From positions 212,663-276,662 of the forward strand of contig CAZEDL010000001.1 of the NCBI GenBank assembly GCA_964510885.1: DNA of 64,000 bases, given 5' to 3'. Of the stretch, positions 4,364 through 42,030 are shown one piece after another. Both the position numbers and the translations under genes were made by a program. Under the pieces are notes generated by a model, which did not search any database, was not told where the DNA came from, and saw only the letters and a program-made list of their open reading frames with translations. Every line of letters starts with the position of its first letter. The stretch's first letter is position 1. This stretch comes from an uncultured Gammaproteobacteria bacterium. GTDB taxonomy: Bacteria; Patescibacteriota; Patescibacteriia; Magasanikbacterales; GWA2-37-8.

Positions 4364-4539
4364 ACATCAGGAGTCAGTAAAAATTATTAAGCTTAGCATA
4401 CCATAAAAAAAGTGTTGTGAAAATAAGTAAAAAATGCTACTATTAATATAGCAAATTTAATCCAAAGTCTAGGCCAACTACTAAAAAAACATTTTTTCTT
4501 GTCGATATTGGGCTGTTTATACAAATCAATAACTAGCGT

Positions 4540-4731
4540 ATGGCTGGAGAGAAATCTTCGCTAAAACAGATGACATCTTTAGTTAAAGATGCATATGCAG
4601 CTTTCGCTGAATTTATGCGTGATTTAATGTCTATAAAAAAAGCTGAAAAAGATATAATTACCGAAGCTCATCGAAGAGTTGATGCCAAAAAGTTAGCAAT
4701 CATTAAATCAAAAATTAATTCTATTGACTAA
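4540..4731 (+). CDS. Hypothetical small helical protein (63 aa)
   Basis: Stop TAA 4729-4731 is 1 nt before ATG of next gene (translational coupling). Confidence 0.35.
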   Translation: MAGEKSSLKQMTSLVKDAYAAFAEFMRDLMSIKKAEKDIITEAHRRVDAKKLAIIKSKINSID

Positions 4732-4732
4732 T

Positions 4733-6520
4733 ATGGCGAAGACACGAGAAAAATTTGTGCTCCCGGTGCCCAAAGAAAATGTAGCTGTCCACGAACGTCT
4801 ACCGCGAGAGCAGTCGACTGCTGACAGCGAGATTGCAGCTTTAGAAGAAATACACGACCGAGCTGCCCAGGAAGTAGGCGTTCTATCAGAGAAATTTGGA
4901 CGCGACATGACAGATCAGGCGTTAACAAAGACAGACAAGCTTGAAATTACCAAGTTAGAAAACCGGGCGAAAGGTTTGTTTGGAAGACTGCAATCAAGAA
5001 TTGAAGGCCTGCTTGGCAGAAAAAAAACAGCTGAAAAAAAGATTGTGATGACTAGTAGCCCGGATAGAGAGATACACTCTAGCGATCATTTGTCGGGAAG
5101 TGAGACATACCAAGAAATGGAGGCTCGAATTAACAAAGAAATTCCTGAGCACTTAACTGCAGAACAGCTTACCAGATTATCTTTACTGGTAGATTCTGAG
5201 CGATTGCTCGTAGAAAAAAAGTTTTACGAGACACCAAACTATGAGACAAAAAACGCGCTAAACAATTTGGTACAAAAGAAAATAGCTATCATGGAGAGGT
5301 TAGAGAAACTAAATAGAGAAGATCCGGAAATAAAACAGGCTGCAGAAGCCAAAAAAATTGACGATTATTTAAAGAACAGCATTCAAGCTCCACCAGAATC
5401 AAAATTGAATTATGACATGGTTTCAGATTCTGTTTTAAATAGCGACCCGCTGTTACTTTTGGGCAGATATTTTCAAGATTTAAACGAGCAGCAGGATAGC
5501 CTCAAGTATTCTAATGATTCTGACAAAAATCCAAAAAGAATGGTCATTGCAGAACGCATGGAAGAGGCAGCACGTGCCCTCGAGAAACTGCGCAAAGGAG
5601 ATCCGGTAGAGGCAGAAAAACTGGTAAAAGATAAATTCTACTATGTTTCCGGTGGGCAGCAGGGAACTGGAATAGATCGGGGCCTTGTTCTTGACAGTAT
5701 CAAGAGGCTTGTCTATCCAAAGTTAAAAAAAGATCTACAAGACAGTGGTCGCCATTTATTGGCTGATTTTCAAGCTCAAGCTGAAGCTGCGCGCCAACAA
5801 CTTAAGGGTTTTGCTCCTGAGACGCTAGATGTTAATTACAACCTTCAGCCGGTGATTAAAGCGATTAACGAACGGATAAATCACTTTACAGAAGTGTTAT
5901 CCGTGGATCAAGCAAACGGCCGTCAAGACAGAGCGGCTGATTTAACAATGGCGCTTCAGGATTTAGAAAAAAGCCGTAAGACAGCGCTGGATCTGATGGA
6001 GGCACAAAAAAAACTACCAGCCGACCTTAACAGCAAGGCAAAAAAACTTGAATCATATCAACCTATTGCGACAGATTCAAAAGAAGTTAGAGAGACATTA
6101 GCGGAAGTTGAATTAAAAAAAGATATAGCAGCTCTTGAGCAAAAGCTGGAAAAAGATATGTCCAGTCTTGAAAATTTTCTTAGCCCGGTTATGAGCGCAG
6201 CTGATTTTGATGCGTTTTTAACTAACCCTAACAAGTTCATTGCCTCAATCCTTGAATTGACACCTGAAAAAATTGCTCAAAAAATCAAGGAAGTCGGGGA
6301 AAAATATAAAACACCTAAAAAATCTGCCCCGGATAAAAACGATGAAGTGGGAAGAAAGCGATTAAGCAAAGCCAAATTAGAATATAATTTCTGGAATGTT
6401 ATACCCGAAACTGTGGAAATAATGCATTCTATCAGACAAAAACAGGAGAAACTTAAAAAGTACGAATCAGATTTGGTTAGTATCCAAAACTTTTCTAAAA
6501 ACGACAGGCTGAGTGCTTAG
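4733..6520 (+). CDS. Hypothetical large K/E-rich predicted coiled-coil protein
   Basis: ~595 aa, heptad-like K/E/L-rich composition throughout, no recognisable catalytic motif; ATG 4733. Confidence 0.5.
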   Translation: MAKTREKFVLPVPKENVAVHERLPREQSTADSEIAALEEIHDRAAQEVGVLSEKFGRDMTDQALTKTDKLEITKLENRAKGLFGRLQSRIEGLLGRKKTAEKKIVMTSSPDREIHSSDHLSGSETYQEMEARINKEIPEHLTAEQLTRLSLLVDSERLLVEKKFYETPNYETKNALNNLVQKKIAIMERLEKLNREDPEIKQAAEAKKIDDYLKNSIQAPPESKLNYDMVSDSVLNSDPLLLLGRYFQDLNEQQDSLKYSNDSDKNPKRMVIAERMEEAARALEKLRKGDPVEAEKLVKDKFYYVSGGQQGTGIDRGLVLDSIKRLVYPKLKKDLQDSGRHLLADFQAQAEAARQQLKGFAPETLDVNYNLQPVIKAINERINHFTEVLSVDQANGRQDRAADLTMALQDLEKSRKTALDLMEAQKKLPADLNSKAKKLESYQPIATDSKEVRETLAEVELKKDIAALEQKLEKDMSSLENFLSPVMSAADFDAFLTNPNKFIASILELTPEKIAQKIKEVGEKYKTPKKSAPDKNDEVGRKRLSKAKLEYNFWNVIPETVEIMHSIRQKQEKLKKYESDLVSIQNFSKNDRLSA

Positions 6521-6571
6521 TTTGCAATAAAAAGAAGGGTAAGTTGAAAAAAGTAGCCTAATATAAAGCAA

Positions 6572-6600
6572 AAAACTACGGAGCGAACCGTAGTTTTTTT
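6572..6600 (+). terminator. Rho-independent terminator
   Basis: CTACGG-AGCGAA-CCGTAG hairpin followed by TTTTTTT. Confidence 0.6.
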
Positions 6601-6818
6601 ATATATATAAAGTAAAACTTACTTGACAATTCGAACAGAATGGGGTAGCGTAGGATGCTATTTCCGCGTTACTGCGGATATAGGACACGCTCTTTTTATT
6701 AGAATAGACTACTCGTCAGTTAGTTGCTTTGAATTAAGGAAATAAATTTTTGTTTGCTAACTTCAAAGCAATTACTAACCGCTTCTCCTGCCGGCAAGGC
6801 AGGGAAAGGAAACAACGA

Positions 6819-7580
6819 ATGATTGAAAAAGATAAAGAAGGTTCGGGAGGAGACATTGGCCCCATGACCACACTCCCCGCTGACACCCTCGTGGTGATTG
6901 AGGCAGAGCTCCCTCCGGACGTGCCTTATGTTCCGGCAGTGGTGTTGGATCCGAACACCCGCCGAAATGAGGCGGTGTACACACCAGAGCTCCTCCGGGC
7001 AGCTGGCCTGTCTGATCCACAGGCTCCACAGCTCCCCCTGCTGAGCGAGGCAGAAGACCATCCGAAGCAGCTACAGGACTATAACGTCGATGTGTCGGAC
7101 CTCTTGGCGGAAGCTGCGGCCGGGCCCCCTCCTCAACCTGGCCCTCCGCCGCTACAACTGCCCACGACTCCACCGGCGCCACAGCGGGCATTCCCGCGCT
7201 CGCGCCTCGGTAGCGTCATCTTGGCGCTCGGTGGCGCTGCTGGCATGGCGCTCATGCTCGCCAACTGGGCCTGGACGAGCCCACCAAAGCCCCGTAGCTC
7301 GACAGATTTCGGTCTGCCGGAGGCAGTGGTGCCTGCGCCCATACCCTCCCCCGACATTCCGCGGCAGTGCCAGCACCTTCCGGCTGCGGCGCGTGGGAAA
7401 CAGTGCCCCGCAGCGACCAGGGCCATTGAGGTCGAGGTACCGGAGCCCCAGAAAAAGCGGCCGAAAAAATCGCGTCGCAAAAGAGCTACACCGCCCACCT
7501 CTCCACCCTCTGTGCCACCACCCGCTGCGGTGGTAGCGCCGCCTGAGCCCGAGCAAGCGCCTCCTCCTCCGGCCGAGTAG
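6819..7580 (+). CDS. Hypothetical proline-rich, single-TM membrane-anchored protein encoded in a high-GC islet
   Basis: ATG 6819 with AGGGAAAGGA SD; PPPQPGPPP / TPPTSPPSVPPP low-complexity segments, central hydrophobic helix (LGSVILALGGAAGMALMLANWAW), basic KKRPKKSRRKR patch; local GC far above flanks. Confidence 0.45.
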   Translation: MIEKDKEGSGGDIGPMTTLPADTLVVIEAELPPDVPYVPAVVLDPNTRRNEAVYTPELLRAAGLSDPQAPQLPLLSEAEDHPKQLQDYNVDVSDLLAEAAAGPPPQPGPPPLQLPTTPPAPQRAFPRSRLGSVILALGGAAGMALMLANWAWTSPPKPRSSTDFGLPEAVVPAPIPSPDIPRQCQHLPAAARGKQCPAATRAIEVEVPEPQKKRPKKSRRKRATPPTSPPSVPPPAAVVAPPEPEQAPPPPAE

Positions 7581-7700
7581 TCACCCCCTGCCCCACCTCC
7601 CATCTGGGACGGCCAACTGGGGCAGGCGCATCGCCCTTCCCCTCCCTGTCATTTTATCTTCGATGAGCTGACAGGTAGAAGGGTGGCGCAATTATTTAAA

Positions 7701-7737
7701 AATATCCTCCTGATTAATCAGGAGGATATTTTTTTAT
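7701..7737. terminator. Strong bidirectional terminator
   Basis: Perfect hairpin ATATCCTCCTGATT-AATC-AGGAGGATAT + T-run. Confidence 0.65.
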
Positions 7738-8039
7738 TTCTTTTCGGACGTAGACAGTATGTTTTTTACCAGAGCAAAATTTTTCTGTTCAGGAGATAGC
7801 CCATATTTGTCTTCCAATTTAGAGGCCTCTTGCAACTGTTTTTTTTTTGGGACTGGCTCGCCTGAACGTAGCGTGGCATTAAAAATGAATAGATAGTCCT
7901 CGGCGTCGCGGCTTGACCAACCGAGTTTCTGTAAGGCTTCTATACGCCTAAGGTTGGCTTCAGCCTCGCTTACTTGGATATCAAACTGGATTTGGTGTGG
8001 AATAATAAATTCACCGGGTACAGGTTTTTTGAAAGGCAT
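7734..8039 (-). CDS. Hypothetical protein (101 aa)
   Basis: ORF with coding-like composition, 2 nt from upstream EEP gene. Confidence 0.4.
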   Translation of the reverse strand: MPFKKPVPGEFIIPHQIQFDIQVSEAEANLRRIEALQKLGWSSRDAEDYLFIFNATLRSGEPVPKKKQLQEASKLEDKYGLSPEQKNFALVKNILSTSEKK

Positions 8040-8041
8040 AG

Positions 8042-9109: not shown

Positions 9110-10624
9110 TTGACTGACACGCAATTATCTGATATGATCAGCCACGTTTATAGCTCCACTCATATGGAACATGGCAATGTAATCATTCGGTTTGATACCG
9201 TGCAATTTGCCTACCAAGAAGGCAAGCAGATCCTTGAAGAGGCTAGTTTTTCGGTGCGTAAAAATGCCAAAGTGACCATCATGGGGCAAAACGGAGCGGG
9301 CAAAAGCACTATTTTTAAATTGATCCTCAATGAGCTTAGCCCGGACAGCGGCAGTGTTAGCATCGAGAACGGAGCCAAGATTGCCATTGCCACCCAGGTA
9401 ATGAAGCCGGAATTTTTTGACAAAACAGTGGCCGAATTTTTTGCCACCGCTTTTGAAGAAAAAACCTATGATCTGCCGAAACGAATTAAAGATGTGCTCG
9501 AAATTGTCCATTTGACCGCCCCGTTAGATAAATTGATCAAAGGTTTTTCGGGTGGCCAACAGGCCAGGCTGCTTTTGGCCTATGCCATTATTCAAGAACC
9601 GGATATTTTACTGCTTGATGAACCGACCAACAATCTTGATAGCCAAGGAATTGCGCATCTCACTGAATTTTTGATCAATTATCCCAAGACCTGCTTGGTC
9701 ATTTCGCATGATGCAAATTTTTTGAATGCCTTTACAGACGGCGTGTTATATCTCGATGTCTTCACCAAACAAGTGGAGCAGTATGTGGGCGACTATTACA
9801 ATGTGCTTGGTGAAATCGAAGCGCGGATTGAACGCGAACGCATGAAAAATGCCCAGCTGCGTAAAAGTATCCAAGATCGCAAGGATAAAATAAACTTTTT
9901 TGCCAATAAAGGGGGCAAGATGCGCAAACTGGCCAGCAAATTGCGTGACCAGGTGGAAGAAGCCGAGGATTCAATGGTAGATGAACGGCGCGAAGACAAA
10001 ACAATTAATGACTTTATGATTCCCGCCAGCACCGAACTGGTAGGGCCGGTGGTGGAAATTAGTTCGGTTGGGGTGATGATCGATCATGAGCCAGTACGAA
10101 AAACATTGCTGTCCCCCCTATCGCTTCGTAAAAAACAATGTTTGCTAATTGAAGGACCCAATGGCATTGGAAAGAGCACACTGCTTGCAGCGTTGGCTGC
10201 TGGCACCGAAAGCGGAGCTACGATTGCTAAGGATGTAAAAGTGGGATATTACCGACAAGATTTTTCAGGGCTAAATTTTGATCAAACCGCCTATGAAGCT
10301 TTGGCCGAAATGATGGTGGACCCCTGGAACCAAGAAATTTATGCTACGGCGTCGCAATTTTTATTAACCCCAGAAGTACTGCGTAATAAAGTAGGAGCTT
10401 TGTCGGAAGGTCAAAAAGGACTTTTGTGCTATGCCCGGTTTGTGTTACAAAAGCCGGGTTTACTGATTATGGATGAACCGACGAATCATATTAATTTTCG
10501 ACACCTCCCGGTGATTGCCAAAGCACTCGATGAATTTGAAGGGGCACTGATTCTGGTGAGTCATGCCTATGAATTTATTGGAGAAATAACGATTGATCAG
10601 CGCTTGGATCTGGTGAATATTTGA
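9110..10624 (+). CDS. ABC-F family ATPase (two tandem ABC domains, no TMD)
   Basis: Walker A GQNGAGKST and GPNGIGKST, signatures LSGGQQ / LSEGQK, Walker B LLLDEPTN / LIMDEPTN; start codon uncertain (TTG at 9110 or downstream ATG). Confidence 0.8.
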   Translation: MTDTQLSDMISHVYSSTHMEHGNVIIRFDTVQFAYQEGKQILEEASFSVRKNAKVTIMGQNGAGKSTIFKLILNELSPDSGSVSIENGAKIAIATQVMKPEFFDKTVAEFFATAFEEKTYDLPKRIKDVLEIVHLTAPLDKLIKGFSGGQQARLLLAYAIIQEPDILLLDEPTNNLDSQGIAHLTEFLINYPKTCLVISHDANFLNAFTDGVLYLDVFTKQVEQYVGDYYNVLGEIEARIERERMKNAQLRKSIQDRKDKINFFANKGGKMRKLASKLRDQVEEAEDSMVDERREDKTINDFMIPASTELVGPVVEISSVGVMIDHEPVRKTLLSPLSLRKKQCLLIEGPNGIGKSTLLAALAAGTESGATIAKDVKVGYYRQDFSGLNFDQTAYEALAEMMVDPWNQEIYATASQFLLTPEVLRNKVGALSEGQKGLLCYARFVLQKPGLLIMDEPTNHINFRHLPVIAKALDEFEGALILVSHAYEFIGEITIDQRLDLVNI

Positions 10625-10746
10625 CTTTTTTTTAAGAATATCTTAGAGTCCGAATCAGAGCATTTTGTTGGCCAAAATTGCGTAATAAGGCGTATGTATG
10701 GCCAATTTATCACCGGACTGCTTGTTGCGGTCCAAGGAGCTTGCAC

Positions 10747-10914
10747 ATGAAAATTTTGCGAATTGCGACTCTTTTTATCGGGTTTGCCTGCTTAGGGTGG
10801 GGGTACCCCGGACAGTGCGAAAACGACACCAACTGCCCCACGGGGCAGGTGTGTGGGAAGGAAAAAAGGTGCGTTCCAGCGCCAAAGCCAATCCCCAGGC
10901 CACCCACCAAGTAA
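10747..10914 (+). CDS. Small secreted cysteine-rich peptide (56 aa precursor; C-X5-C-X5-C-X5-C + Pro-rich tail)
   Basis: AAGGAG SD 8 nt before ATG 10747; Sec-type signal MKILRIATLFIGFACLGWG; four Cys at regular spacing; strong terminator follows. Confidence 0.5.
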   Translation: MKILRIATLFIGFACLGWGYPGQCENDTNCPTGQVCGKEKRCVPAPKPIPRPPTK

Positions 10915-10936
10915 GACCCCAGTAAGGTAGCCTGAA

Positions 10937-10975
10937 GCCGCCGGTTTCCTCTAACCGGCGGCTCTTTCTTTTTTA
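10937..10975 (+). terminator. Rho-independent terminator
   Basis: AGCCGCCGGTT…AACCGGCGGCT hairpin + TTTCTTTTTT. Confidence 0.65.
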
Positions 10976-11062
10976 AAGCATATTTAACCAGCCATTCCTT
11001 GACAATCGCTGGTTTTTTTGTTATATTTTAGCATTAATTTTGATTCCTTAACCAAGGATTTT

Positions 11063-12637
11063 ATGAATAAGTTTACAGCTTTTTTAAAAAGCCACTCGAC
11101 GATCATGTATGTGATTGTGGCAGTCGTATTGGTAGGCGCTGGCGCAGCTAACTATGCCCGGCATAAGCGGGCGGCAGCCACCGCACCTGTTGACACGACT
11201 ACCCGTGTCAGCCTGGTAGAGGCTAAGACATTTTTGAAAAGTACGGGCGTGGTAGCGGCTACCGGGGTGGTTGAATCGGCCGAGCAGGCAGATGTCCGTA
11301 GCCAGGCCACTGGCCAGGTGGCCCGGGTCAGTGCAGCGGTTGGCAACAGGGTCTATCGCGGTCAAGTATTAGTGAGCCTGACCAGCGCTGATTTACAAGC
11401 TCAGCGCCGACAGGCTGAGGCGGCTTTGAAAGTACAAGAAGCCAGTTTGCAACAGCTCTATAGCGGTGCCAAAACAGAGGATATTAGCCTGGCTGAAGCA
11501 CAACTCGCAGCGGCCCGAAAAAATGTAGAAGATGTACGCAGGCAACAGGAGGTAAACGTGAAAAATGCCTATTCAACGATGCTTAACGCCGGCCTCAGCG
11601 CCATGCCAGCGATTACCAATCAATCTACGGCAGCGCTGACTCTAAGCGGCACCTATACCGGGGAGCCTGGCACGTATAAAATTTCCCTTATCCAGGGCGG
11701 CGATGGGATCACTCTTAATTCTAGCGGCCTCGAAGTTGCCAGTGCCCGGGTCTATCCGGGGATAGCGACTGCGCTTGGTAAACGCGGATTATTCTTCACG
11801 TTCGCAGCCACCGGCAATATTAGCGTCCATGACACCTGGACTATCACGATTCCAAATACCCAGTCCCCTACCTATTTAGCGGCCAGCAATGCCTATGACG
11901 CCACCAAGCAAGCGTCCGAGGCAGCAATTCAAGGAGCAGAGAACGCCTTAGACATTGCTCAAAAAGCTCTTGATCTTAAAAAATCATCGGCTACAAATGC
12001 GCAGATTCAGGCCCAGCTCGCCGCCATAGAACAAGCCAAAGCGTCGATTGCTTTTATCAATGCGCAAATTGCTAAAACCGTAATTACCTCGCCGATTAAC
12101 GGGGTGATTTCAAACGTATCTATAAAATACGGCGAACTGGTTAGTGCTGGGCAGAAAGTGGCCAGTGTCGTAAATAACGGTGGATTACAAGTTAAGGTCT
12201 ATGTCAGCAGCGAAGATCTGCCGCGCCTTAGCGCCAAAGATAAAGTAACAATTGGCGCCACGGCAAACGGTGAGATTACCAATCTGGCGCCTAGTGTTGA
12301 TCCCACCAGTAAAACAGCTGAGGTAGTGATCAGTGTGGTGAACCCTCAAAAATCAGGATTGACGGCAGGACAAAATATTTCGGTCAAAATCAGCGGCGAA
12401 AAATCAAATGGTTCAACTAGCGATGTGTTTGTATTGCCGATTCAAATGGTGACTATTGCCCCCGACCAGAGTGCAACGGTGTACACGGTAGAGACTGGAA
12501 AAATTACCGCTTATCCAGTGGAACTCGGCCCGGTGAATGGTGAAACAGTGACGGTAAAAAAAGGGCTGAAAGCTGATATGAAATTAGTCTCTTCGGGATA
12601 TGGGCTGACGGTGGGACAAACGGTGATTGTTCAGTAA
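11063..12637 (+). CDS. Efflux transporter periplasmic adaptor (membrane-fusion/HlyD-like) subunit
   Basis: N-terminal TM anchor, coiled-coil hairpin (QAQRRQAEAALKVQEASLQQL…), C-terminal beta-barrel pattern; sits 15 bp upstream of RND gene. Confidence 0.65.
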   Translation: MNKFTAFLKSHSTIMYVIVAVVLVGAGAANYARHKRAAATAPVDTTTRVSLVEAKTFLKSTGVVAATGVVESAEQADVRSQATGQVARVSAAVGNRVYRGQVLVSLTSADLQAQRRQAEAALKVQEASLQQLYSGAKTEDISLAEAQLAAARKNVEDVRRQQEVNVKNAYSTMLNAGLSAMPAITNQSTAALTLSGTYTGEPGTYKISLIQGGDGITLNSSGLEVASARVYPGIATALGKRGLFFTFAATGNISVHDTWTITIPNTQSPTYLAASNAYDATKQASEAAIQGAENALDIAQKALDLKKSSATNAQIQAQLAAIEQAKASIAFINAQIAKTVITSPINGVISNVSIKYGELVSAGQKVASVVNNGGLQVKVYVSSEDLPRLSAKDKVTIGATANGEITNLAPSVDPTSKTAEVVISVVNPQKSGLTAGQNISVKISGEKSNGSTSDVFVLPIQMVTIAPDQSATVYTVETGKITAYPVELGPVNGETVTVKKGLKADMKLVSSGYGLTVGQTVIVQ

Positions 12638-12651: not shown

Positions 12652-15600
12652 ATGAATATGGATCAAGACGTATCTAAACAGGGCGAAGTTTTATCCTTTA
12701 TTCCACCGGTAATAAAAACCTCGGACCAATTATACCTCGATAGCTTGGAATTTGATCCGGCCTTGCGGAAAAGCTGGTTGAATTTTTTTGTCACTAATTT
12801 TCGCGTGGTACTCCTCTTGATCTTAATGGTCAGTGGAGCCGGTTTATATGCTTTTTTAAAATTACCGCGCGAATCGAACCCAGAAGTTAAGATAGCGATC
12901 GCGAGCGTGGTGACGGTATATCCGGGCGCATCACCAGCTGATGTGGAAGAACTGGTCACTAAAAAAGTGGAAACTAGTGTAGCCAGCTTGAAAGGCATTC
13001 AAAAAATTACCTCGAACTCACTGAATAACTTGTCTTCGGTAATAGTCGAATTTGACGCCAAGGCTGATCTTGATGATTCGATCCGCAGCCTGCGCGACAA
13101 GATGAACACCGTTAAATCTAATTTGCCAGCCGATGCCAAAGAACCAATTGTGACTGAGGTATCGCTTGATGATCAGCCGATCTTGACACTGGCCATGACC
13201 GGGCCATACGACGGCTTCACCATGCGTGAGTTTGCTGAAAAGGCGAAAGATGAACTTGAAAAAATTCCGGGCATCCGCGAAGTCTTGATCGACGGGGGCA
13301 ATGAGAAGGAATTTGAGATAGCATTCAATCCGGAAAAATTACTCTTCTACCATTTATCAACCCAGCAAGCTGCTCAGGCGATTGCTGCCACCAATCTGGC
13401 CATTCCGGCTGGGACTTTTGATAGTAATATTTACCAGTATTCCGTTCGATCTGATTCAAAATTATATACTCCTGAAGCGATTGCGGCGGTGCCAATCACC
13501 TCTTCAGCTAGCGGAGCAATCGTGACCATTGGCGACGTGGCCGAAGTGAGCGTCCACGCCATTAAAAAAAGCACCTTGTCACGGTTGTCTATAAAAGGAT
13601 CGGTGCCCCGAGATGCTATTACCTTGTCTTTGGTGAAACGCACGGGAGCGTCGGTGATTGATACGGCAAAAGCTGCCCGCACCACTATGGACGCGGTGGT
13701 CGCAACCGTCGGTGCTGGCGTGCATTATGATGTCAGCATGGATCTTGCCAAACAGATCGAAAAAGATTTTAACCAACTAGAGCACGATTTTGTACTGACG
13801 CTGCTTTTGGTGTTTGGCATCTTGTTTGTCATCGTCGGGCTTAAGGAAGCCTTTGTGGCGGGACTCGCTATTCCGCTCGTGTTCTTTGCCACATTCGTGG
13901 CACTGCTTAGTTTTGGCATATCACTCAACTTCTTATCACTGTTCTCACTGATCTTGTCGCTCGGGTTATTAGTTGACGATGCCATTGTGGTGGTATCGGC
14001 GACTAAACAATATCTAAAAATTGGTAAATTCACGCCGGAAGAAGCGGTGCTCTTGGTGCTGCGAGATTTTAAAGTGGTATTGACCACCACGACGCTCACT
14101 ACGGTGTGGGCTTTCTTACCGCTACTATTTGCCACTGGCATTATCGGTGAGTATATCAAATCAATTCCGATCACCGTGTCGATTACACTTATCTCTTCGC
14201 TGTTTATCGCGCTCATGATCAATCATCCGCTCGCAGCGGTGCTAGAGCGCCTACGCCTGACGAGACCGTTTTTCTTTATCATTGAAGCTGGATTATTATT
14301 CTTGGCTGCTATCACTCTTTATAGCGGCGGCGTGGCAGGATATATCGTGGCGGCGCTGGCTGCTGCGGCAGTGATTTACCTGGCCCGGTGGTATGAAAAA
14401 GGCGGTAAAGAGACGTTGATTGCCAATGTCGCGTTATCCCGGGCAGAATGGCAGAGCGATGACTTAATTAAGAAAAAATTAATCAGCCAGACGAATCATA
14501 TTGGTAGCAGCTGGAGTACGCGCCTGATGCACGGCATTCTGCATTTTGATCGTTTTTTGCCGCCCTATGAACGCAGCATGCGTAGAATTTTGGCTACCAA
14601 GCAAAGCCGCCGCCGGACACTGCTCACGGTAAGCGCCCTATTTATTCTGGCTGTGATTCTGCCAATTGCCGGCGTGGTACGCTCAGAATTCTTCCCGAAG
14701 ACCGATAATGAATATGTCTATATTGATATCAGCGCCCCGGTTGGCTACAAACTGGCGGAAACCAATAAGATCATCCGGATGGTTGAAGAAAAGCTACTAC
14801 CCTATAAAGAAATTGCCAACTTTTCCTCGTTCATTGGCCGGGTCAGCCCGGTGAATGCAAATGGGAAAAATTCTGAACATGTTGGTTCGATAGCGATCAC
14901 TCTAAAAGATAAGAGCGAGCGAGTGCAAAAATCGTATGATTTTGCCGATCGGTTACGCGATGAAATCGGGGTAATCCCAAATGCAGTATTGACAGTATCG
15001 TCACTCAGCGGGGGCCCACCGTCGGGGGCGGCGTTTCAGGCACGCATAAGCGGCGACGACTTGGCGACACTGTCGAAAATTGTCAATGAATTGCGGCCAA
15101 AATTGGCGGCTATCCCTGGGGTCGTAGATATTGATAGTTCGCTCAAAAATTCAGCTCCGGATTATACGTTTGTGCTTGATCCAATCAAAATAGCCCAGAA
15201 TAATCTGAATTCCGCCTATGTTGGATCAGTGCTCCGCCTCGCTATCTCAGGCACCGAAATCAGCACGGTACTGGAGAATAATAAAGAGATAAAAATCATG
15301 ACTCGGTTTGATACTAAAAATATTCCGGATTTGGCCGCGATTCAAAATCTGCAGATCCTTAATCAGTTGGGGCAGCCGGTTTACCTAAAAGATGTAGCCA
15401 CCATTCAACTTAAATCAGCGGTGGACGGCATTACACGCATCGACCAAAAGCGAACTATCTTGCTGTCCGCTAATACCTCAAGCGGCACTAGTGCGCCGCT
15501 CGTCCTATCTGCCTTCCAAAAAAATATTGCCGGTTATGCCTTCCCAACTGGTTATAGTATTGACTATGGCGGCGAGAACGAACAAAACCAAGAATCAGTC

Positions 15601-16089
15601 TTGTCTATCATCCGCGCCATGGTGATCGCTATGGTGCTTATCGTGTCTACGCTGATCGTACAGTTCAATTCATTCCGCAAGGCTTTTATCGTCCTGATCA
15701 CTATTCCTCTGGCTTTAATCGGTGTGTTTATTGGGCTCGCAGTATTTGGGGTGCCGCTTAGCTTCCCCGGTTTGATCGGGATTCTGGCGCTGTTTGGCAT
15801 CGTGGTTAAGAATGCCATTATTCTGGTAGATAAAATCAATCTTAATCTCAAGAGCGGCATACCGTTTGTAGAAGCGATCATCGACGCTGGAAAATCGCGC
15901 CTCGAAGCGATCTTTATTACTTCGATCTGCACGATCTTTGGTATCCTGCCTATCACCCTGTCCAATGAAACCTGGACTGCACTCGGGAGCGCTGTTATCT
16001 TTGGCCTCATGCTATCTTCTTTCTTGACTTTGTTTATCGTGCCGACATTGTTCGTAACACTGATGAAGCCGCATGATACTCAGGTCTAA
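12652..16089 (+). CDS. RND superfamily efflux transporter permease (AcrB-like)
   Basis: 1145 aa; 12-TM/2 large periplasmic loop architecture and AcrB-family motifs. Confidence 0.8.
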   Translation: MNMDQDVSKQGEVLSFIPPVIKTSDQLYLDSLEFDPALRKSWLNFFVTNFRVVLLLILMVSGAGLYAFLKLPRESNPEVKIAIASVVTVYPGASPADVEELVTKKVETSVASLKGIQKITSNSLNNLSSVIVEFDAKADLDDSIRSLRDKMNTVKSNLPADAKEPIVTEVSLDDQPILTLAMTGPYDGFTMREFAEKAKDELEKIPGIREVLIDGGNEKEFEIAFNPEKLLFYHLSTQQAAQAIAATNLAIPAGTFDSNIYQYSVRSDSKLYTPEAIAAVPITSSASGAIVTIGDVAEVSVHAIKKSTLSRLSIKGSVPRDAITLSLVKRTGASVIDTAKAARTTMDAVVATVGAGVHYDVSMDLAKQIEKDFNQLEHDFVLTLLLVFGILFVIVGLKEAFVAGLAIPLVFFATFVALLSFGISLNFLSLFSLILSLGLLVDDAIVVVSATKQYLKIGKFTPEEAVLLVLRDFKVVLTTTTLTTVWAFLPLLFATGIIGEYIKSIPITVSITLISSLFIALMINHPLAAVLERLRLTRPFFFIIEAGLLFLAAITLYSGGVAGYIVAALAAAAVIYLARWYEKGGKETLIANVALSRAEWQSDDLIKKKLISQTNHIGSSWSTRLMHGILHFDRFLPPYERSMRRILATKQSRRRTLLTVSALFILAVILPIAGVVRSEFFPKTDNEYVYIDISAPVGYKLAETNKIIRMVEEKLLPYKEIANFSSFIGRVSPVNANGKNSEHVGSIAITLKDKSERVQKSYDFADRLRDEIGVIPNAVLTVSSLSGGPPSGAAFQARISGDDLATLSKIVNELRPKLAAIPGVVDIDSSLKNSAPDYTFVLDPIKIAQNNLNSAYVGSVLRLAISGTEISTVLENNKEIKIMTRFDTKNIPDLAAIQNLQILNQLGQPVYLKDVATIQLKSAVDGITRIDQKRTILLSANTSSGTSAPLVLSAFQKNIAGYAFPTGYSIDYGGENEQNQESVLSIIRAMVIAMVLIVSTLIVQFNSFRKAFIVLITIPLALIGVFIGLAVFGVPLSFPGLIGILALFGIVVKNAIILVDKINLNLKSGIPFVEAIIDAGKSRLEAIFITSICTIFGILPITLSNETWTALGSAVIFGLMLSSFLTLFIVPTLFVTLMKPHDTQV

Positions 16090-16392: not shown

Positions 16393-18150
16393 CTAACTTT
16401 TCCGATTGTGATGAAGCAGTAATTCAAGCGCGTGATTCATAGATCCGGCCAGCTCTAATTTGCCTGAATTTACAAAGAAAATTTCATCAGCATTTTCGAT
16501 AGTATTTAGTCGATGAGCAATAATTACTTTCGTGGTTTTGCTTGGCAAATTTGCCAAGATTTCTTCTAGCAGGTACTCAGTAACTGTATCAATATTAGCA
16601 GTAGCCTCGTCAAGGATAAGAATATCTGGTCGGCGCAAAACAGCGCGAATAAACGCAATGAGCTGCTTTTGGCCAAGGCTTACTATATCACCGGTAATTT
16701 TAAGCTCGGTATCAAGGCCTTCTTCAAAACGTGATAAAATTTTAGTCAAACCAGCATTTCCTAGAGCAACAGCCAATTGATCGTTGCTAAGTGCAGATTG
16801 CTCAATATTTCCATAGACAATATTTTCTCTCAGAGTGCCCGTAAATATGACCGGGTCCTGCAAAATAAAACCAATCCTCCTAACTCGTTCGGCGTGAGAA
16901 TACGATCGAATATCTTTTCCTTCCAAATATACCGTTCCGGTTGTAGGATCATATAAACGCGCCATAAGTGACGCCGTAGTGGTTTTACCACCGCCAGTCG
17001 GGCCTACCAGGGCGTACGTTTTTCCAGGCTGCAGTGATAAGTTGGTGATGTGCAATACTTCCTTTCCGTTTTCATAGGCAAACGTAACGTCTTTGAATTC
17101 TAGCCGAGAATTAACTTGGCTGGCGGCAGCGTTAGGCACAACAGCGAGATTACTTTGAAGGACCAAAATTTCATGGACACGGTCCCAGCTGGCGAGAGCT
17201 GTCTGAAAGCTGGCCCAGAGCGCAGCCATATGACGGAGCGGATTGTAAAAGTTGGTAGCGTAAGATATGAAGCTAATTAACAGCCCAATGGTAAATTGCC
17301 CGACTGCAATGAGGGAGATACCGTAAACCAACACGATTAGCTGACCGATATTCGCTGCCAAACCATAGATAGGCACGAAAATATTGTTGGCAATGCCGGC
17401 TCCGATAGCCGCCTGATAGTTACTATTATTTACATCTTGGAATCTTTTTTTAAAATAGTCACGGCGATTAAACGCAATAATAACTTTAAAATTATTCAAG
17501 CTTTCTTGAATACCTGAACTCATGCCTCCCAAAGTTTCTGCACTCCGTGTATTTTTCTTTTTTACCCAAGACGATAGTGCCACCGTGATTCCCAGTAAGA
17601 TAGCGGCTGGCGCTAGCGTAGCCACACCAAGGCGCAGATTAAGCCCGAGCAGAAAAAAAACGGCCCCAGCCATTATAAAAATATTTCCAAAAAATTGCAC
17701 TAAAGACTGAGAAAAAAACTGATTAATCTTGTCAGTGTCATTGTTGATGCGTGAGATAAGATCACCAGCTTTATTCTGGTTAAAAAAAGCTACCGGCAGC
17801 TCTTGTAACTTATCAAAAATTTGGCCGCGTAAACGAAAAAGTACGCGCTGTCCTACACCACCCATCAACCGAACCTGAGTATAACTTGTTGCTAAACCAA
17901 ATAAGTATAGCAGAATAATAATTCCTGCGTAGAAAAGTACGCCCTTGTAGTCTCCCACCAGAATATAACTATCGATTGCATGGGCAATTAGGCGTGGTGC
18001 AATTAAGTTTACCAGTGAATTCAAAATCACCGCACCAAGAGCAAAACCAATAACACCCTGTTCTTCCCTGATGAGCGGCCAGAAATTTTTACCGGCCTGC
18101 CAAAGTGAATTTTTAGCAGGTTTGTCTATCCTGGTCAGGTTGTAATTCAT
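16393..18150 (-). CDS. ABC exporter, fused permease/ATPase subunit (heterodimer partner)
   Basis: 6-TM N-domain + NBD (GPTGGGKTT, LSLGQKQ, ILILDEATANID); 4-bp overlap (ATGA) with upstream partner. Confidence 0.8.
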   Translation of the reverse strand: MNYNLTRIDKPAKNSLWQAGKNFWPLIREEQGVIGFALGAVILNSLVNLIAPRLIAHAIDSYILVGDYKGVLFYAGIIILLYLFGLATSYTQVRLMGGVGQRVLFRLRGQIFDKLQELPVAFFNQNKAGDLISRINNDTDKINQFFSQSLVQFFGNIFIMAGAVFFLLGLNLRLGVATLAPAAILLGITVALSSWVKKKNTRSAETLGGMSSGIQESLNNFKVIIAFNRRDYFKKRFQDVNNSNYQAAIGAGIANNIFVPIYGLAANIGQLIVLVYGISLIAVGQFTIGLLISFISYATNFYNPLRHMAALWASFQTALASWDRVHEILVLQSNLAVVPNAAASQVNSRLEFKDVTFAYENGKEVLHITNLSLQPGKTYALVGPTGGGKTTTASLMARLYDPTTGTVYLEGKDIRSYSHAERVRRIGFILQDPVIFTGTLRENIVYGNIEQSALSNDQLAVALGNAGLTKILSRFEEGLDTELKITGDIVSLGQKQLIAFIRAVLRRPDILILDEATANIDTVTEYLLEEILANLPSKTTKVIIAHRLNTIENADEIFFVNSGKLELAGSMNHALELLLHHNRKS

Positions 18151-19925
18151 AAAGTATTGGTACTTTGTTGTGAATTATAGATCTGAACATATTCAGGTGA
18201 GGCGTCGAGTAGTTCGTGATGACTGCCGCTCACAATTTTTTCGCCTTCCATAAGCACCACTATCTGATCATAACTTTCGACTGAGGCGATCTTTTGTGTT
18301 ACTGAGACCAGAGTCAATCCGGGATAATTTTGGGCAATATTATTAAGAATTTTTTGTTCGGTTGCTGTATCCACACGAGCAGTAAAATCATCTAGCAGTA
18401 ATATTTTCGGATTGATTGCAAGTGCTCGAGCCAGCATTATGCGCTGCTTCTGGCCGCCAGATAAGCTAGTGCCACGCTCTGATACCACAGTTTCAAGACC
18501 TTGAGGTAACGACGCAATGAAATCAGATAATTCAGAGGTGGCAATAGCTTGTTTGAGATCGACGTTAGTCACTGCAGTGTTAAATGCAATATTTTCGCGC
18601 AGACTTATATTGAAAATTATACTATCTTGAAAAACAAGACCGATCTGGCGATATAAATTTTCGCGTCGGTAATCGGCCAGCGAGTGATTATCATATAACA
18701 CTTCCCCGGTGGTTGGTTTAACAAGGCCAACTAAAATATTTAGCAATTGAGTTTTACCCGCGGCCGTCGGCCCGATGATAGCTACTTTTTGACCAGGCTT
18801 GATATCAAGTGAAATGTTCGTCAGAACCATTTTTTCTCCATAATTCATCGAGATATTCTTTACTTCAATGGCCCCGCGCAGCGGCTCGACCCTGGTGCCG
18901 TCAGCAGTCGAAGGCGCAGAAGCGAGAACTATTTCAATACGGCTGTAGGAAGCTTGGGCTTGAGCAAGGATATTGCTGACAAAGCCAAGGATAAAAATTG
19001 GAAAAATTAAAATGGTTAAATAACTAGTAAATGAGGCAAAATCACCAAGTGACATGGTGCCACCGATGACAAATTTCCCGCCTAGGACCAAAATTATAAG
19101 GGTGGCGAGATTCGATGCAAACGTAACAACCGGAATCATGGCGGAAAATAATTTAAGAATGTTGACACCGACATCGCGCGCAGCCGCATTGGCAGCGTTG
19201 AATTTATCATGTTCGATAGTTTTTGCATCCAGCACTCGAACTAAGGTAGAACCGAGAATACTTTCGTTAATTACTTTATTCAGCCAATCGATAATTTCGC
19301 GAGTTTTGAGGAACAAAGCCCGAACTTTTCCGAGGATAAGAAAAAAAGTGACACCAATTATTGGTAAGACCGCTAGCACCGCAAGGCCAAGTTTCCAATT
19401 TATGGAAAGCAGCAAATAACTACCACCGATGATAAGCAATAGCGACGACACCAAGTTGACCACAGCTTGGGAGACAAAGTTTTTTATGGAATCTATATCC
19501 GATGTCAGGTTGGTCAGTAATTTTTCAGCAGTAAGCGTCTGAATTTCTGCATAGGTATAAGTAGAGATTTTATCTGAAACGGTATTGCGTAAATCACGAG
19601 CGACGCGCTCAGAGGCATAGGTCTGCAGGATATTTTGAAAACCTGTCAAAATAAAAATCAAGACCGCAACTAGACCAAACTGCCACTCAACCTTACTGAG
19701 TGATCGGGATAAAAAGTAACCATCAATACCATGAGCCAATAGGCGAGGAAGCCATAAAGTAAGCACATTAGCAACCACAGCCAATAACACCAAAGGTAAA
19801 ATTAAATTACCATAGGGCCTGAGAAGGGCCAATAAGTTGGGTTTTTTGGACTGAACGGTTTTAACTTCATGATTACTCATATAGTGTATAGCACTAAAAA
19901 GTGATTTTTTTGTTAAGAGCGACAT
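18147..19925 (-). CDS. ABC exporter, fused permease/ATPase subunit (heterodimer partner)
   Basis: 6-TM + NBD (GPTAAGKT, LSGGQKQR, LLLDDFTARVD - degenerate Walker B suggests asymmetric heterodimer). Confidence 0.8.
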   Translation of the reverse strand: MSLLTKKSLFSAIHYMSNHEVKTVQSKKPNLLALLRPYGNLILPLVLLAVVANVLTLWLPRLLAHGIDGYFLSRSLSKVEWQFGLVAVLIFILTGFQNILQTYASERVARDLRNTVSDKISTYTYAEIQTLTAEKLLTNLTSDIDSIKNFVSQAVVNLVSSLLLIIGGSYLLLSINWKLGLAVLAVLPIIGVTFFLILGKVRALFLKTREIIDWLNKVINESILGSTLVRVLDAKTIEHDKFNAANAAARDVGVNILKLFSAMIPVVTFASNLATLIILVLGGKFVIGGTMSLGDFASFTSYLTILIFPIFILGFVSNILAQAQASYSRIEIVLASAPSTADGTRVEPLRGAIEVKNISMNYGEKMVLTNISLDIKPGQKVAIIGPTAAGKTQLLNILVGLVKPTTGEVLYDNHSLADYRRENLYRQIGLVFQDSIIFNISLRENIAFNTAVTNVDLKQAIATSELSDFIASLPQGLETVVSERGTSLSGGQKQRIMLARALAINPKILLLDDFTARVDTATEQKILNNIAQNYPGLTLVSVTQKIASVESYDQIVVLMEGEKIVSGSHHELLDASPEYVQIYNSQQSTNTL

Positions 19926-20310
19926 AAAGTGACAACTCTTTATCGCTGAGAATACTAAACAAATCTGTTAATAGATCCACATTTTGACGCTCAAATTTTT
20001 TTAACATACGAGCAGCTTTTGGTGACAGTGATAGATTGGCACGGCGACGATCTTGTTTATACTGAGTCCGAATCAGATATTTTTTCTCGACTAAACTATC
20101 TACTAATTGCGAAACGGCACTACTGCTAACGTGAAGAGAATTGGCAATTTCTTTTACCTGAGCACTACCCTGGTCAGAGACGCACCGCAATACCATACCT
20201 TGGGACGGGGTAATGAGCCTGCTCTTACTCCCGTGACCTACGGCTAATTTCTTGCGCATTTGTAAAAAGAAGTGCCAAAGATTATTTATAAGTTCAGTTC
20301 GGCTGGGCAT
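19894..20310 (-). CDS. MarR family transcriptional regulator
   Basis: 138 aa winged-helix MarR pattern; first gene of MarR-ABC-ABC operon. Confidence 0.75.
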   Translation of the reverse strand: MPSRTELINNLWHFFLQMRKKLAVGHGSKSRLITPSQGMVLRCVSDQGSAQVKEIANSLHVSSSAVSQLVDSLVEKKYLIRTQYKQDRRRANLSLSPKAARMLKKFERQNVDLLTDLFSILSDKELSLYVALNKKITF

Positions 20311-24673: not shown

Positions 24674-25483
24674 CTACTTTTGTCTGCTTGGTGGGGTGCC
24701 CAGCATTTTCGGCGACCGCTTGATTTTTCCATATATTGGGATAAAAGTCAATGCGGCAACAAATAACAGCATCCCCCACTGGGCCGGGGTCAAAATCCAG
24801 TACCGGACATCGCTGATCGGTAGGTCATGAGCCCGCAGAAAATCAAGAAAAAAGCGGGCTATCGCATATGCCAATACAGAGAAATAAGTAACGAGTCCGG
24901 GTCGGCGTTTGGTGAGAGCGGTGAAGAGCAGTGAAAAGACTATAAACAAGGCAAAGCCAGTCAGCGACTCATACAAGCCAAGATCATGGCGGATGCCACC
25001 TGGGTAATTCACACCCCCAATAAAGCTGGTAAGCGTGCCTGGATGATCATGGATGAGAAAGCAGCCGATGCGGCCTACGCCCCAACCGAGCCAGAGGCTG
25101 AGTGTACCGATATCAAGATACGGAATAACTTCTGACCACGAGAATTTGCGGCGCCAAAAAAACCAGGCGGCAGTGAGGCTACCCCCGATAAAACCGCCAA
25201 GCGATGAGGCGCCACCATGCCAAAAAGCGATAATTTCGGCCGGATGAGCAAGGTAGTAGGCTGGCTGGTAGCATAAAATATGCCCCAGCCGCCCACCGAT
25301 CAAGGCGCCAATCACCACTGCTACGGAAAGATCAAGCACAAGTGCAGTGGACAGCACCCCTCTCTTGGCACGGTAATAAAAATGAAGGATCGCTGCCAAA
25401 ATTCCGCCTGACACCAACAGACCCCACACTTTTATAGAGATGGGGCCAATGATGATATCAGTGTATTGAACAAACGGGATCAT
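24674..25483 (-). CDS. lgt: Prolipoprotein diacylglyceryl transferase
   Basis: 269 aa; Lgt signature GWGVGRIGCFLIHDHPG and membrane topology. Confidence 0.8.
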   Translation of the reverse strand: MIPFVQYTDIIIGPISIKVWGLLVSGGILAAILHFYYRAKRGVLSTALVLDLSVAVVIGALIGGRLGHILCYQPAYYLAHPAEIIAFWHGGASSLGGFIGGSLTAAWFFWRRKFSWSEVIPYLDIGTLSLWLGWGVGRIGCFLIHDHPGTLTSFIGGVNYPGGIRHDLGLYESLTGFALFIVFSLLFTALTKRRPGLVTYFSVLAYAIARFFLDFLRAHDLPISDVRYWILTPAQWGMLLFVAALTFIPIYGKIKRSPKMLGTPPSRQK

Positions 25484-33944: not shown

Positions 33945-34017
33945 ACAATATTTAAATTGTTTGCATATATTACCATATAAATCTTAATATTGGTAGCGAT
34001 TTTAAAAAATAAAAAAA

Positions 34018-34350
34018 TCAAACGCTTTTTTTCTTACGTGGTTTCGGCGGTTTAAGATCCGCTGCGCAGGCTGCACATAAAGCATCAAAGCTTTCACCGT
34101 TTTCCAAAAATTCTGTACTCATAATATAAGCCGGTTTGGCACCCGGGTATGGCAAACCCGTCTTGTGCTTCGCACCAAGTATGCCAGTAGTCTGCGGCGT
34201 AATTTTAACAAACACCTGATTATCGCAGATCAAAGCTACGACTTTATTATTATAGTACAGTGCATATTCACCAAACATCGCTCGGATGCGGGCCACATGG
34301 CCATTAACTTGATCGAGCACGAATTCGGCAAAATCGCGGGTGGTGGCCAT
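34018..34350 (-). CDS. TfoX N-terminal domain protein
   Basis: RAMFGEYALYYNNKVVALICDNQVFVK matches TfoX_N core. Confidence 0.5.
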   Translation of the reverse strand: MATTRDFAEFVLDQVNGHVARIRAMFGEYALYYNNKVVALICDNQVFVKITPQTTGILGAKHKTGLPYPGAKPAYIMSTEFLENGESFDALCAACAADLKPPKPRKKKSV

Positions 34351-34406
34351 AGTTATAGTGATTTCAAAAATTATATACTACGACTGACATACCAGAATAA
34401 ATGCTG

Positions 34407-34865
34407 CTATTTTTTGCTCGAAACCGTTTGATCGATATGACCCACCTTCTTAGCGATCGCATGCACATCGGTGTGAATTTCCTCTAGCGCTTCGCTTTCC
34501 GAAACAATTTCGGCCTCGGTTTTTTCTACTAATTTTTTCTGTCCACGCAAACCAGAAATAATAATTTCATTACCAATAAAATTAGAAACAAATAAACCCG
34601 TAGACAGGGTAATTATAGTGCCGATAAGTAACGATACCGGCCCATCCCACCACGGAAAAACGGCTTGACCAAGAGCAGTCGGAGCGAAAAAACATTCCAT
34701 GATCAGATCTACGGTATTCCAAGCACCGCGCCAAAAAACCACTACCCCAAACCCGCCAATAAACGCATATACGATCGGCCGACGGCTGCACCAGCCACGA
34801 ACTTTATCTTCAAATTTATCACCCCAACGGTATATTTTTTTGAACATATTCGGTTGATTTATCAA
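34407..34865 (-). CDS. Hypothetical membrane protein
   Basis: 152 aa, 2-3 TM. Confidence 0.4.
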   Translation of the reverse strand: MINQPNMFKKIYRWGDKFEDKVRGWCSRRPIVYAFIGGFGVVVFWRGAWNTVDLIMECFFAPTALGQAVFPWWDGPVSLLIGTIITLSTGLFVSNFIGNEIIISGLRGQKKLVEKTEAEIVSESEALEEIHTDVHAIAKKVGHIDQTVSSKK

Positions 34866-35167
34866 ACTAGGATACAGAACTTATTTACTTACTATTTTTC
34901 GCATTTTATATTTAATGACCCCGTATACGCAGGAAGATTATACTAATCATTATAAAGATGCAACACAGACATTTATTAAGCGATAGGCTGAATACGTAGA
35001 GGGTATAGAATTATTTTTTGAATTAATCTGACAGCTGGTTTAATGATGTGCAGATAAACAATTAAGAAACTGTACTTTTCATGAATGAACTGAGATAAAT
35101 GTATCTTTTTTGATCTAATTTTTTGAAGTAAAAACTAAGACACCGGCATTAAAGCTGCTGTCTTAAA

Positions 35168-35184
35168 TGTAGCCCGTACGGGAA
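35168..35184. repeat. Partial (17-bp) third copy of the tRNA-Glu att core
   Basis: TGTAGCCCGTACGGGAA identical to first 17 nt of the 24-bp repeat; diverges after. Confidence 0.55.
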
Positions 35185-35342
35185 ATCTTGTGCGTCGTCG
35201 CTACGCTCCTCCTACACAAAAACCTTCGGGTTTTCGTGGGCTTTCCTCCCCAGGTAAAAAACTCCATTTCTTACCATCTTGCGTGCGATTCAGTGGATCA
35301 AAAAACAAATAAAATACTCCCTTATTAAGGGAGTATTTTATT

Positions 35343-35366
35343 TGTAGCCCGTACGGGAATCGCACC
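35343..35366. repeat. Left att direct repeat (24 bp) of integrative element
   Basis: TGTAGCCCGTACGGGAATCGCACC identical to 42063-42086. Confidence 0.7.
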
Positions 35367-35568
35367 AACTCAAGCAAATTCTGAATTTTCCTACGGTTGA
35401 GCAATTATACGCTGACGTTAGCTAAAAGTCTAATTCTCATTCGTTCTCAAGTATCCGCATCCGTACTCCCCTTTCATCACTTTTTGGCCACAGGGTGGAC
35501 ACAAACTTTTAAGATGTTCAACGGCAACACAGAGAAAGTGATATTGCGGGGAAACCCGTATAGAAAAT

Positions 35569-36665: not shown

Positions 36666-36679
36666 AAATTATTGTTAAT

Positions 36680-42026: not shown

Positions 42027-42030
42027 CGCA

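Follow-up and report, generated by a model that had tools for sequence, protein, structure and literature searches.

A small Cys-rich reading frame beside an adaptor–RND pump: a probable gene for an exported single-unit repeat mini-protein

What does a short, Cys-rich open reading frame (ORF) encode when it lies between the gene of an ABC-F ATPase and an adaptor–RND efflux pair, and does it have anything to do with the pump? The question is raised by a 64,000-nucleotide (nt) stretch of contig CAZEDL010000001.1 (GenBank assembly GCA_964510885.1, positions 212,663 to 276,662 of the forward strand; hereafter the window) from an uncultured bacterium that is filed under Gammaproteobacteria and placed by GTDB in the Magasanikbacterales (Patescibacteriota). 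A preliminary description, made from the letters of the window alone, had proposed a secreted Cys-rich peptide of signalling, antimicrobial or adhesin-like type that might be functionally linked to the exporter downstream. Here, we argue that the ORF at 10747-10914 is probably a genuine, lineage-specific gene for a Sec-exported, disulfide-locked mini-protein, which annotation has missed and which is independent of the pump.

The ORF is found where the preliminary description had placed it, on the plus strand from ATG 10747 to the stop at 10912-10914, and its product has 55 amino acids (aa), MKILRIATLFIGFACLGWGYPGQCENDTNCPTGQVCGKEKRCVPAPKPIPRPPTK. As had also been remarked, the ORF list for the window carries it only inside a longer form, a 78-aa version with a TTG start (10678-10914). 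Its parts are as follows.

10747..10914, plus strand: peptide coding sequence (55-aa pre-peptide, stop included), from the ORF scan, a hidden Markov model (HMM) of the repeat unit, a shuffle control and phmmer
10734..10739, plus strand: Shine-Dalgarno (SD) motif AAGGAG, with a 7-nt spacer to ATG 10747
10747..10803, plus strand: predicted signal peptide, residues 1-19 (MKILRIATLFIGFACLGWG), by simple rules for the n-, h- and c-regions and for positions -3 and -1; likely cut by signal peptidase I (SPase I) after G19
10816..10872, plus strand: four-Cys module CENDTNCPTGQVCGKEKRC, its Cys invariant in the alignment with 14 repeat units; predicted two-disulfide beta-hairpin
10873..10911, plus strand: Pro-rich basic tail VPAPKPIPRPPTK, matching the xPxP linker between units of the repeat family

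The regular C-X5-C-X5-C-X5-C pattern holds exactly, with the module cysteines at C24, C30, C36 and C42, and a fifth cysteine that had gone unmentioned, C15, lies inside the hydrophobic signal peptide. The Pro-rich tail is likewise as described: the 13 C-terminal residues include 6 prolines and three basic residues. The predicted mature peptide has 36 aa, with a computed pI of 8.9 and a net charge of about +3.

The relationships of the peptide come from phmmer, which was run exhaustively against 1.84 billion cluster representatives and returned three matches (E = 3.7e-6, 2.1e-4 and 6.1e-4). All three (P0041-P0043) are larger proteins made of tandem C-x5-C-x5-C-x5-C-x-P-x-P units with a CPxGxxCG core, and all three pass the Pfam model DUF7107 (PF23416; E = 2.9e-14 to 1.2e-6). 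The peptide is 31-52% identical to individual repeat units, and in its alignment with 14 of them all four cysteines are invariant. It thus carries every element of a single DUF7107-type unit (four cysteines at x5 spacing, the CPxGxxCG core and the xPxP linker) and departs from the family in arrangement: the Pfam model spans two units (48 positions) and its members are multi-repeat proteins of 260 to more than 1,100 aa, whereas here one unit sits in a 55-aa precursor. A pattern scan of the JGI metagenomes with a 4-sequence profile found 7 loci, at which the module always lies within a larger Cys-rich protein. At one of them (L013) the protein has a signal peptide and a MYXO-CTERM-like tail; at two others (L014, 1481-1537, and L015, 937-993) the module directly follows a canonical lipobox, LAAAC, in a protein of roughly at least 500 residues, which offers a possible model for how a signal-plus-module fragment turns into a stand-alone gene. 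Wherever the N-terminus of a related protein could be read, it holds a membrane anchor, a signal peptide or a lipoprotein signal. Significant profile homology identifies the module of the peptide as a single unit of the tandem Cys repeat found in larger bacterial proteins, most of them secreted or of surface type.

The closest named NCBIfam model is TIGR04201 (Myxo_Cys_RPT), which was built on the Cys-rich repeats of Myxococcus TraA. The TraA repeats are extracellular and presumed to be disulfide-bonded; they are proposed to build a rigid stalk on which a PA14 domain is displayed (PMC3325183). The adhesin-like option of the preliminary description fits such a family context, although the peptide differs from TraA in having no PA14 domain, MYXO-CTERM or tandem array, and its host is not a myxobacterium. 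A weak, sub-threshold profile similarity also connects the peptide to the EB module (PF01683), and the repeat proteins show weak profile similarity to EB and Dickkopf_N, all of them small disulfide-rich extracellular modules; the EB and Dickkopf-N/colipase-type modules differ in having more cysteines and in being eukaryotic. The peptide is, in sum, an orphan: a Cys-repeat module that is known, though uncharacterised, occurs here as one unit standing alone, in a gene that is lineage-specific and mis-annotated. Literature searches on DUF7107 and on small Cys-rich secreted peptides in Patescibacteria yielded nothing relevant.

Could so short a frame have arisen by chance? As a control, an HMM was made solely from 14 repeat units that come from three unrelated proteins in the database; the peptide itself was left out. 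With this model the peptide ORF scores 36 bits and the next best of the 1,420 stop-to-stop ORFs in the window 4.6. The real mature peptide reaches 38.6 bits, whereas none of 20,000 shuffles with its composition exceeds 19.4, so the match is not a composition effect. Even a relaxed pattern, C-x(4-7)-C three times in succession, occurs at only one other site in the six frames of the 64 kb, and there without the x5 spacing. A crude rule finds a signal-peptide-like N-terminus in 30 of the 1,794 start-initiated ORFs of at least 40 aa in the window; adding an SD core leaves 4, namely the peptide ORF, two larger probable secreted proteins and one ORF antisense inside the RND gene. The SD itself was correctly described as near-consensus, AAGGAG, while its spacing is 7 nt and not the 8 nt given. 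In a motif-centred survey, strong SD cores seldom sit 5' of real genes of this organism, so we count the motif as supporting evidence only; few genes of the window have a strong SD, two secreted proteins among them. Taken together, the peptide ORF is very probably a real coding sequence and not a chance ORF. Elsewhere in the window, two adjoining genes on the minus strand (47377-47871 and 48016-48582) combine a strong GGAGGT SD with clear signal-peptide-like N-termini and have no Pfam match.

The public annotation reads the same DNA in another frame.

10698..10925, plus strand: 75-aa ORF in another frame, as called at NCBI and Logan and found in the public annotation; judged a mis-call

That this 75-aa ORF is the real gene, or that the region is non-coding with a fortuitous Cys frame, seems to us scarcely credible. 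The gene callers at NCBI and Logan did choose it, the latter on a contig (L002) that is 100% identical to the window and hence offers no natural variation for a selection test. In a collection of 15 billion proteins it is the sole product of the locus, a singleton cluster from NCBI and Logan, and the 55-aa and 78-aa products have no exact match there. Its product, however, matches nothing in Pfam, PHROG or the repeat HMM and is without recognisable features, the ORF is not preceded by an SD, and where the two frames overlap it has the poorer codon score (-22.3, versus -7.0 for the peptide frame). No frame at the locus has the codon usage of the long genes of the window, which would suit a non-coding region; against this stands the homology of the peptide frame, which is significant beyond composition. 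A permissive Rfam search gave no RNA family at the locus, only a far sub-threshold small-RNA match over both terminators described below, and the fold of the 5' leader of the peptide gene is not significant (z = -1.9). We conclude that the annotated 75-aa frame is a mis-call and that the Cys-peptide frame is the coding one.

Where would the product go? The preliminary description had assigned a Sec-type signal peptide, and the N-terminus passes the simple n/h/c and (-3,-1) rules. Two basic residues, K2 and R5, precede a hydrophobic core of 13 residues (I6-W18; mean Kyte-Doolittle hydropathy 2.1-2.4), so that by these rules alone it has the basic n-region, the h-region of at least 10 residues and the small residues at -3 and -1 of a Sec/SPase I substrate. 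Small residues allow cleavage after residues 14, 17 and 19, among which G17-W-G19|Y is favoured. The peptide is thus predicted to be exported and cleaved, most likely after G19.

The cysteine inside the signal peptide opens another route, in which Lgt would lipidate Cys15 in GFAC (residues 12-15, a marginal lipobox-like site) and cleavage before Cys15 would leave a 41-aa membrane-anchored lipopeptide with the Cys module. Residues 11-15 (IGFAC) do fit the lipobox part of PROSITE PS51257, a pattern that we applied by hand, and an Lgt gene is present in the window (24674-25483). The odd number of cysteines is consistent with this route, given that lipidation of C15 would leave four of the five for two disulfides, as is the LAAAC lipobox directly in front of the homologous module in L014 and L015. 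The same PROSITE pattern, however, wants six uncharged residues where the peptide has R5. A lipobox rarely has Gly at -3 or Phe at -2, the hydrophobic region in front of Cys15 would be very short, and the Gram-positive pattern G+LPP, likewise applied by hand, fails. We regard a lipoprotein as quite unlikely and keep to the Sec-exported, SPase I-cleaved form.

For the fold, AlphaFold2 was run with the unit alignment as input and the model was compared with the PDB by Foldseek. The module is modelled with a predicted local distance difference test score of 82-90 as a beta-hairpin (strands 34-36 and 42-44), and the signal peptide as a low-confidence helix. The top Foldseek matches are the knottins EETI-II and MCoTI, with root mean square deviations (r.m.s.d.) of 0.5-1.1 Å over 21-24 residues and probabilities up to 0.99: EETI-II superposes at 0.5 Å over 22 residues (probability 0.99), and the two-disulfide intermediate of MCoTI-II at 1.1 Å over 23. 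The module is modelled confidently as a hairpin that superposes on the knottin core, in line with the disulfide-rich peptide proposed earlier. Searching PDB sequences with the unit profile also picks out EETI-II, at E of about 0.002, with the four cysteines in register with its C9, C15, C21 and C27. In EETI-II the disulfides are 2-19, 9-21 and 15-27. Because the four cysteines align in this way, the likely pairing in the peptide is C24-C36 and C30-C42, which would give two disulfides in a predicted cystine-stabilised beta-hairpin. Min-23, which is EETI-II shortened at the N-terminus and left with two disulfides, reaches its native fold as an autonomous cystine-stabilised beta-sheet unit (PMC6259850), so a lone four-Cys module of x5 spacing can be a stable mini-protein.

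The resemblance to knottins has clear limits. Four cysteines of the squash knottins EETI-II and MCoTI-II are spaced identically to those of the peptide, and the engineered Min-23 has the two-disulfide core that is predicted for it. The peptide differs in that it lacks equivalents of EETI-II C2 and C19, and hence the knot, as well as the N-terminal protease-binding loop; knottins come from plants and the peptide is bacterial, and the similarity may be convergent. Identity as a knottin or squash-type protease inhibitor was considered and is ruled out by the missing reactive loop and the two missing cysteines; with four module cysteines and neither knot nor loop, the peptide falls outside the six-Cys knottin definition, and it has no match to Pfam Squash (PF00299) at E <= 0.01. 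As an observation on the family as a whole, the DUF7107-type unit shares with the two-disulfide core of the squash knottins (Min-23) the cysteine spacing, a D-x-D-C...G-x-x-C-G core and the predicted backbone.

The tail invites a different comparison, as its cationic PIPRPP resembles the PRPP cores of Pro-rich antimicrobial peptides of the oncocin, apidaecin and Bac7 type. Those peptides are Cys-free and come from animals. The tail differs from them in being only 13 residues long and in being the ordinary linker of the repeat family. We consider antimicrobial activity less likely than a role as an extracellular surface-binding mini-protein.

The gene sits in a compact block of transcription signals between two larger genes.

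9110..10624, plus strand: ABC-F ATPase gene, the upstream neighbour
10625..10985, plus strand: lineage-specific cassette with the peptide gene, about 350-360 bp, between the ABC-F stop and the ancestral ABC-F terminator/adaptor promoter
10621..10649, plus strand: promoter-like TTGACT-17-TAGAGT, 9/12 consensus matches, overlapping the ABC-F stop; possibly the peptide gene's own promoter
10936..10975, plus strand: peptide-gene terminator of the intrinsic type: 11-bp stem (8 G-C; 10936-10963), 6-nt loop and T-run
10986..11020, plus strand: second hairpin with T7; overlaps the -35 box of the adaptor promoter; probable ancestral terminator of ABC-F
10999..11027, plus strand: adaptor–RND promoter TTGACA-17-TATATT with extended TG, 11/12 consensus matches, kept in the relative L003
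11063..16089, plus strand: adaptor (11063-12637; TIGR01730-type) and RND permease (12652-16089; generic multidrug type)

The strong terminator that had been attributed to the peptide gene is indeed there, 21 nt past the stop. Its hairpin has a folding free energy of -22.6 kcal/mol (z = -4.2; 0 of 200 shuffles as stable) and is the only terminator-like site in a scan of 10000-11500. As no terminator occurs from the ABC-F stop up to the peptide ORF, transcription from ABC-F may also run on into the ORF. That the gene is strongly expressed, as the preliminary description had it, is a prediction from sequence signals: the promoter-like site, the SD and the terminator. The adaptor was said to begin about 90 bp further on, and its ATG at 11063 indeed lies about 88 nt past the T-run of the terminator, 148 nt past the peptide stop. 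The cassette has a GC content of 0.49 and the peptide ORF one of 0.55 (window, 0.45), and the flanks of the cassette show no transposon-like repeats, whether terminal or direct.

Whether peptide and pump belong together can be judged from a relative, GCA_964585245.1 (L003), whose adaptor is 70% identical and whose gene order matches that of the window through HSP20, GrpE, HrcA, Band7, YidC, Exo_endo_phos, ABC-F, adaptor and RND. The gap between ABC-F and adaptor is 438 nt in the window and 85 nt in the relative, where it holds neither a peptide ORF nor the ~350-bp cassette. The relative has the same arrangement of terminator and promoter (about 5932-5975), the structure being kept, with a different stem sequence followed by TATATT, and the second hairpin with its T7 looks like an ancestral ABC-F terminator that overlaps the pump promoter. 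With two genomes compared, the higher GC content at third codon positions (GC3) of the peptide ORF mildly favours acquisition here over deletion in the relative. At 10986-11027 the hairpin with its T7 encloses the TTGACA -35 box, and terminator and promoter overlap within about 40 nt. A second lineage-specific insertion relative to L003, about 3.7 kb versus about 0.36 kb, occupies about 4400-8040; it includes a charged protein of 598 aa that appears coiled-coil by eye (4724-6520) and a Pro-rich protein of 276 aa with one hydrophobic segment (6750-7580), neither with a Pfam match, and many ORFs overlap on both strands at about 6.7-7.6 kb.

An adaptor of identical sequence is also present on a 400-kb NCBI contig. 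Among the adaptor homologues of at least 40% identity the sole informative name is 'Candidatus Doudnabacteria' (40%), which makes a Patescibacteria/CPR-like origin plausible. A scan of a genome collection with the adaptor returned only an unrelated Bacteroides locus, and the RND protein as delimited has no exact sequence match. In the more distant adaptor–RND pairs (40-44% identity; L004 and L006-L009), the upstream position is taken by TetR, another unrelated gene or a divergently transcribed neighbour, and never by a Cys-rich peptide.

Coupling of the peptide to the pump, as its substrate, as a regulator or as a toxin against which the pump protects, is on this evidence very improbable. The peptide gene does adjoin the pump on the same strand, and the adaptor has YknX-like domains. 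In Bacillus, adaptors of the YknX type belong to a protective system directed at a peptide toxin. Against such a coupling, the only relative with the same ABC-F/adaptor/RND order lacks the peptide, the more distant relatives have TetR or other genes in its place, the conserved pump promoter lies downstream of two terminators, and the pump types as a generic multidrug RND. A dedicated exporter is also unnecessary, because the peptide carries a Sec-type signal. The functional link suggested in the preliminary description is thus not supported, and the outcome that it had itself named as refuting, lack of conservation of the peptide in relatives with the same neighbourhood, is what we see. We found no sign of co-transcription or of conserved co-occurrence of the peptide gene with the adaptor–RND operon; a joint operon was considered and is rejected in view of the peptide gene's own terminator, the second terminator and the separate, conserved pump promoter. 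The pump is a separate, older transcription unit. Its further surroundings vary between the two genomes: in the window two ABC exporter genes with fused membrane and ATPase domains and a MarR regulator follow the RND gene on the minus strand (16393-20310), whereas L003 has an RF-1-domain protein, UbiA and a polyprenyl synthase.

Several results weigh against a genuine gene for an exported, disulfide-locked mini-protein. The codon log-odds score of the peptide is -7.0, compared with a mean of +12.8 (s.d. 5.9) for in-frame 55-codon windows, and its GC3 is 0.65, compared with 0.46 for the genes of the window; the atypical codon usage is partly due to the Cys/Pro/Gly-rich composition, and part of it may come from a foreign or recent origin. 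The peptide misses the cut-offs of the relevant family models: DUF7107 at 17.6 versus 24.6 bits (E = 0.005, model positions 1-22 of 48), TIGR04201 at 21.6 versus 25 bits (E = 1.7e-4, positions 2-18 of 22) and EB (PF01683) at 17.9 versus 24.3. The predicted signal peptide is short and was judged by simple rules, and no disulfide-forming enzyme appears among the window genes scanned. Lastly, neither an orthologue, a paralogue nor a standalone homologue was found in the window, the loci of relatives, the JGI metagenomes, IMG/VR, phages or plasmids, so evidence of purifying selection is absent. Word-indexed homologue searches with the peptide and the unit alignment gave no match, single-peptide scans of the JGI metagenomes and IMG/VR no relative, and the 4-sequence profile no match in IMG/VR; tblastn against phages and plasmids and a search of PHROGs were equally negative.

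Many of the same facts would suit a relic or transient ORF, that is, a captured fragment of a repeat protein (signal peptide, first module and linker) or a recently transferred piece without selected function. The peptide is a singleton for which no orthologue was found, is absent from the closest syntenic relative, has atypical codon usage and GC3 and equals exactly one repeat unit plus linker, and in some larger proteins (L014 and L015) the module does directly follow a signal peptide. What makes this origin unlikely in our view is the completeness of the gene: the unit is whole, with an SD at ideal spacing, an ATG, a signal-peptide-like N-terminus, four cysteines and an intact CPxGxxCG core, and a strong dedicated terminator follows 21 nt past the stop. 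A random fragment would rarely keep all of these.

On the favoured reading, that of a lineage-specific gene for an exported mini-protein, the locus would work as follows. Transcription would arise by read-through from ABC-F, from the gene's own weak promoter (10621-10649), or from both, and the strong terminator would insulate the gene from the adaptor–RND operon. The pre-peptide would be exported by Sec and lose its signal peptide of about 19 residues, and the cationic 36-aa product would oxidise to a two-disulfide hairpin with a basic Pro-rich tail, in which the Pro-rich linker of the repeat has become the end of the protein. In the larger family members the modules may serve as stalk or spacer, and possibly as binding elements, of secreted or surface proteins. 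Outside the cell, the peptide could then be a very stable binding or spacer mini-protein at the surface of its producer or of a partner, probably held at the anionic cell surface by its basic tail. It would be neither substrate nor partner of the RND pump. Of this picture, the analysis shows the signals for coding, the homology, the fold as predicted, the lack of the gene in the syntenic relative and the distinct transcription signals; export, the site of cleavage, the pairing of the disulfides, retention at the surface and a biological role are inferred.

A more daring version would make the peptide a natural bacterial 'Min-23' in a producer of the CPR (candidate phyla radiation)/Patescibacteria type: a surface-repeat module captured into the 3' region of the ABC-F transcript that acts as an extracellular effector, antimicrobial or binding to a host cell, with a contribution from the PIPRPP tail. 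We think this improbable. In its boldest form, the co-transcribed ABC-F ATPase, which is of the ribosome-protection-like kind, would confer self-immunity to the peptide.

Outside this neighbourhood, the window also holds a stretch of low GC (0.32-0.38) at about 34000-42140 with six ORFs that have no Pfam match. At its end, a tyrosine recombinase/phage-type integrase gene (40785-42026) lies beside tRNA-Glu(ctc) (42064-42136), and the stretch is probably an integrated mobile element.

If it is made, the peptide would be the smallest natural stand-alone form of a widespread, uncharacterised bacterial Cys repeat (DUF7107/TIGR04201-like), and would provide a tractable 36-residue handle on the fold, disulfide pattern and binding properties of the module. 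The locus is a concrete case of a gene for a small secreted protein that is hidden by a wrong-frame gene call. Public protein collections do not contain the Cys-rich peptide, and protein-database searches are therefore blind to it and to similarly mis-called relatives. The locus also illustrates how a mini-gene complete in itself may be lodged between another gene and that gene's terminator, and it leaves the picture of the neighbouring efflux pump unchanged.

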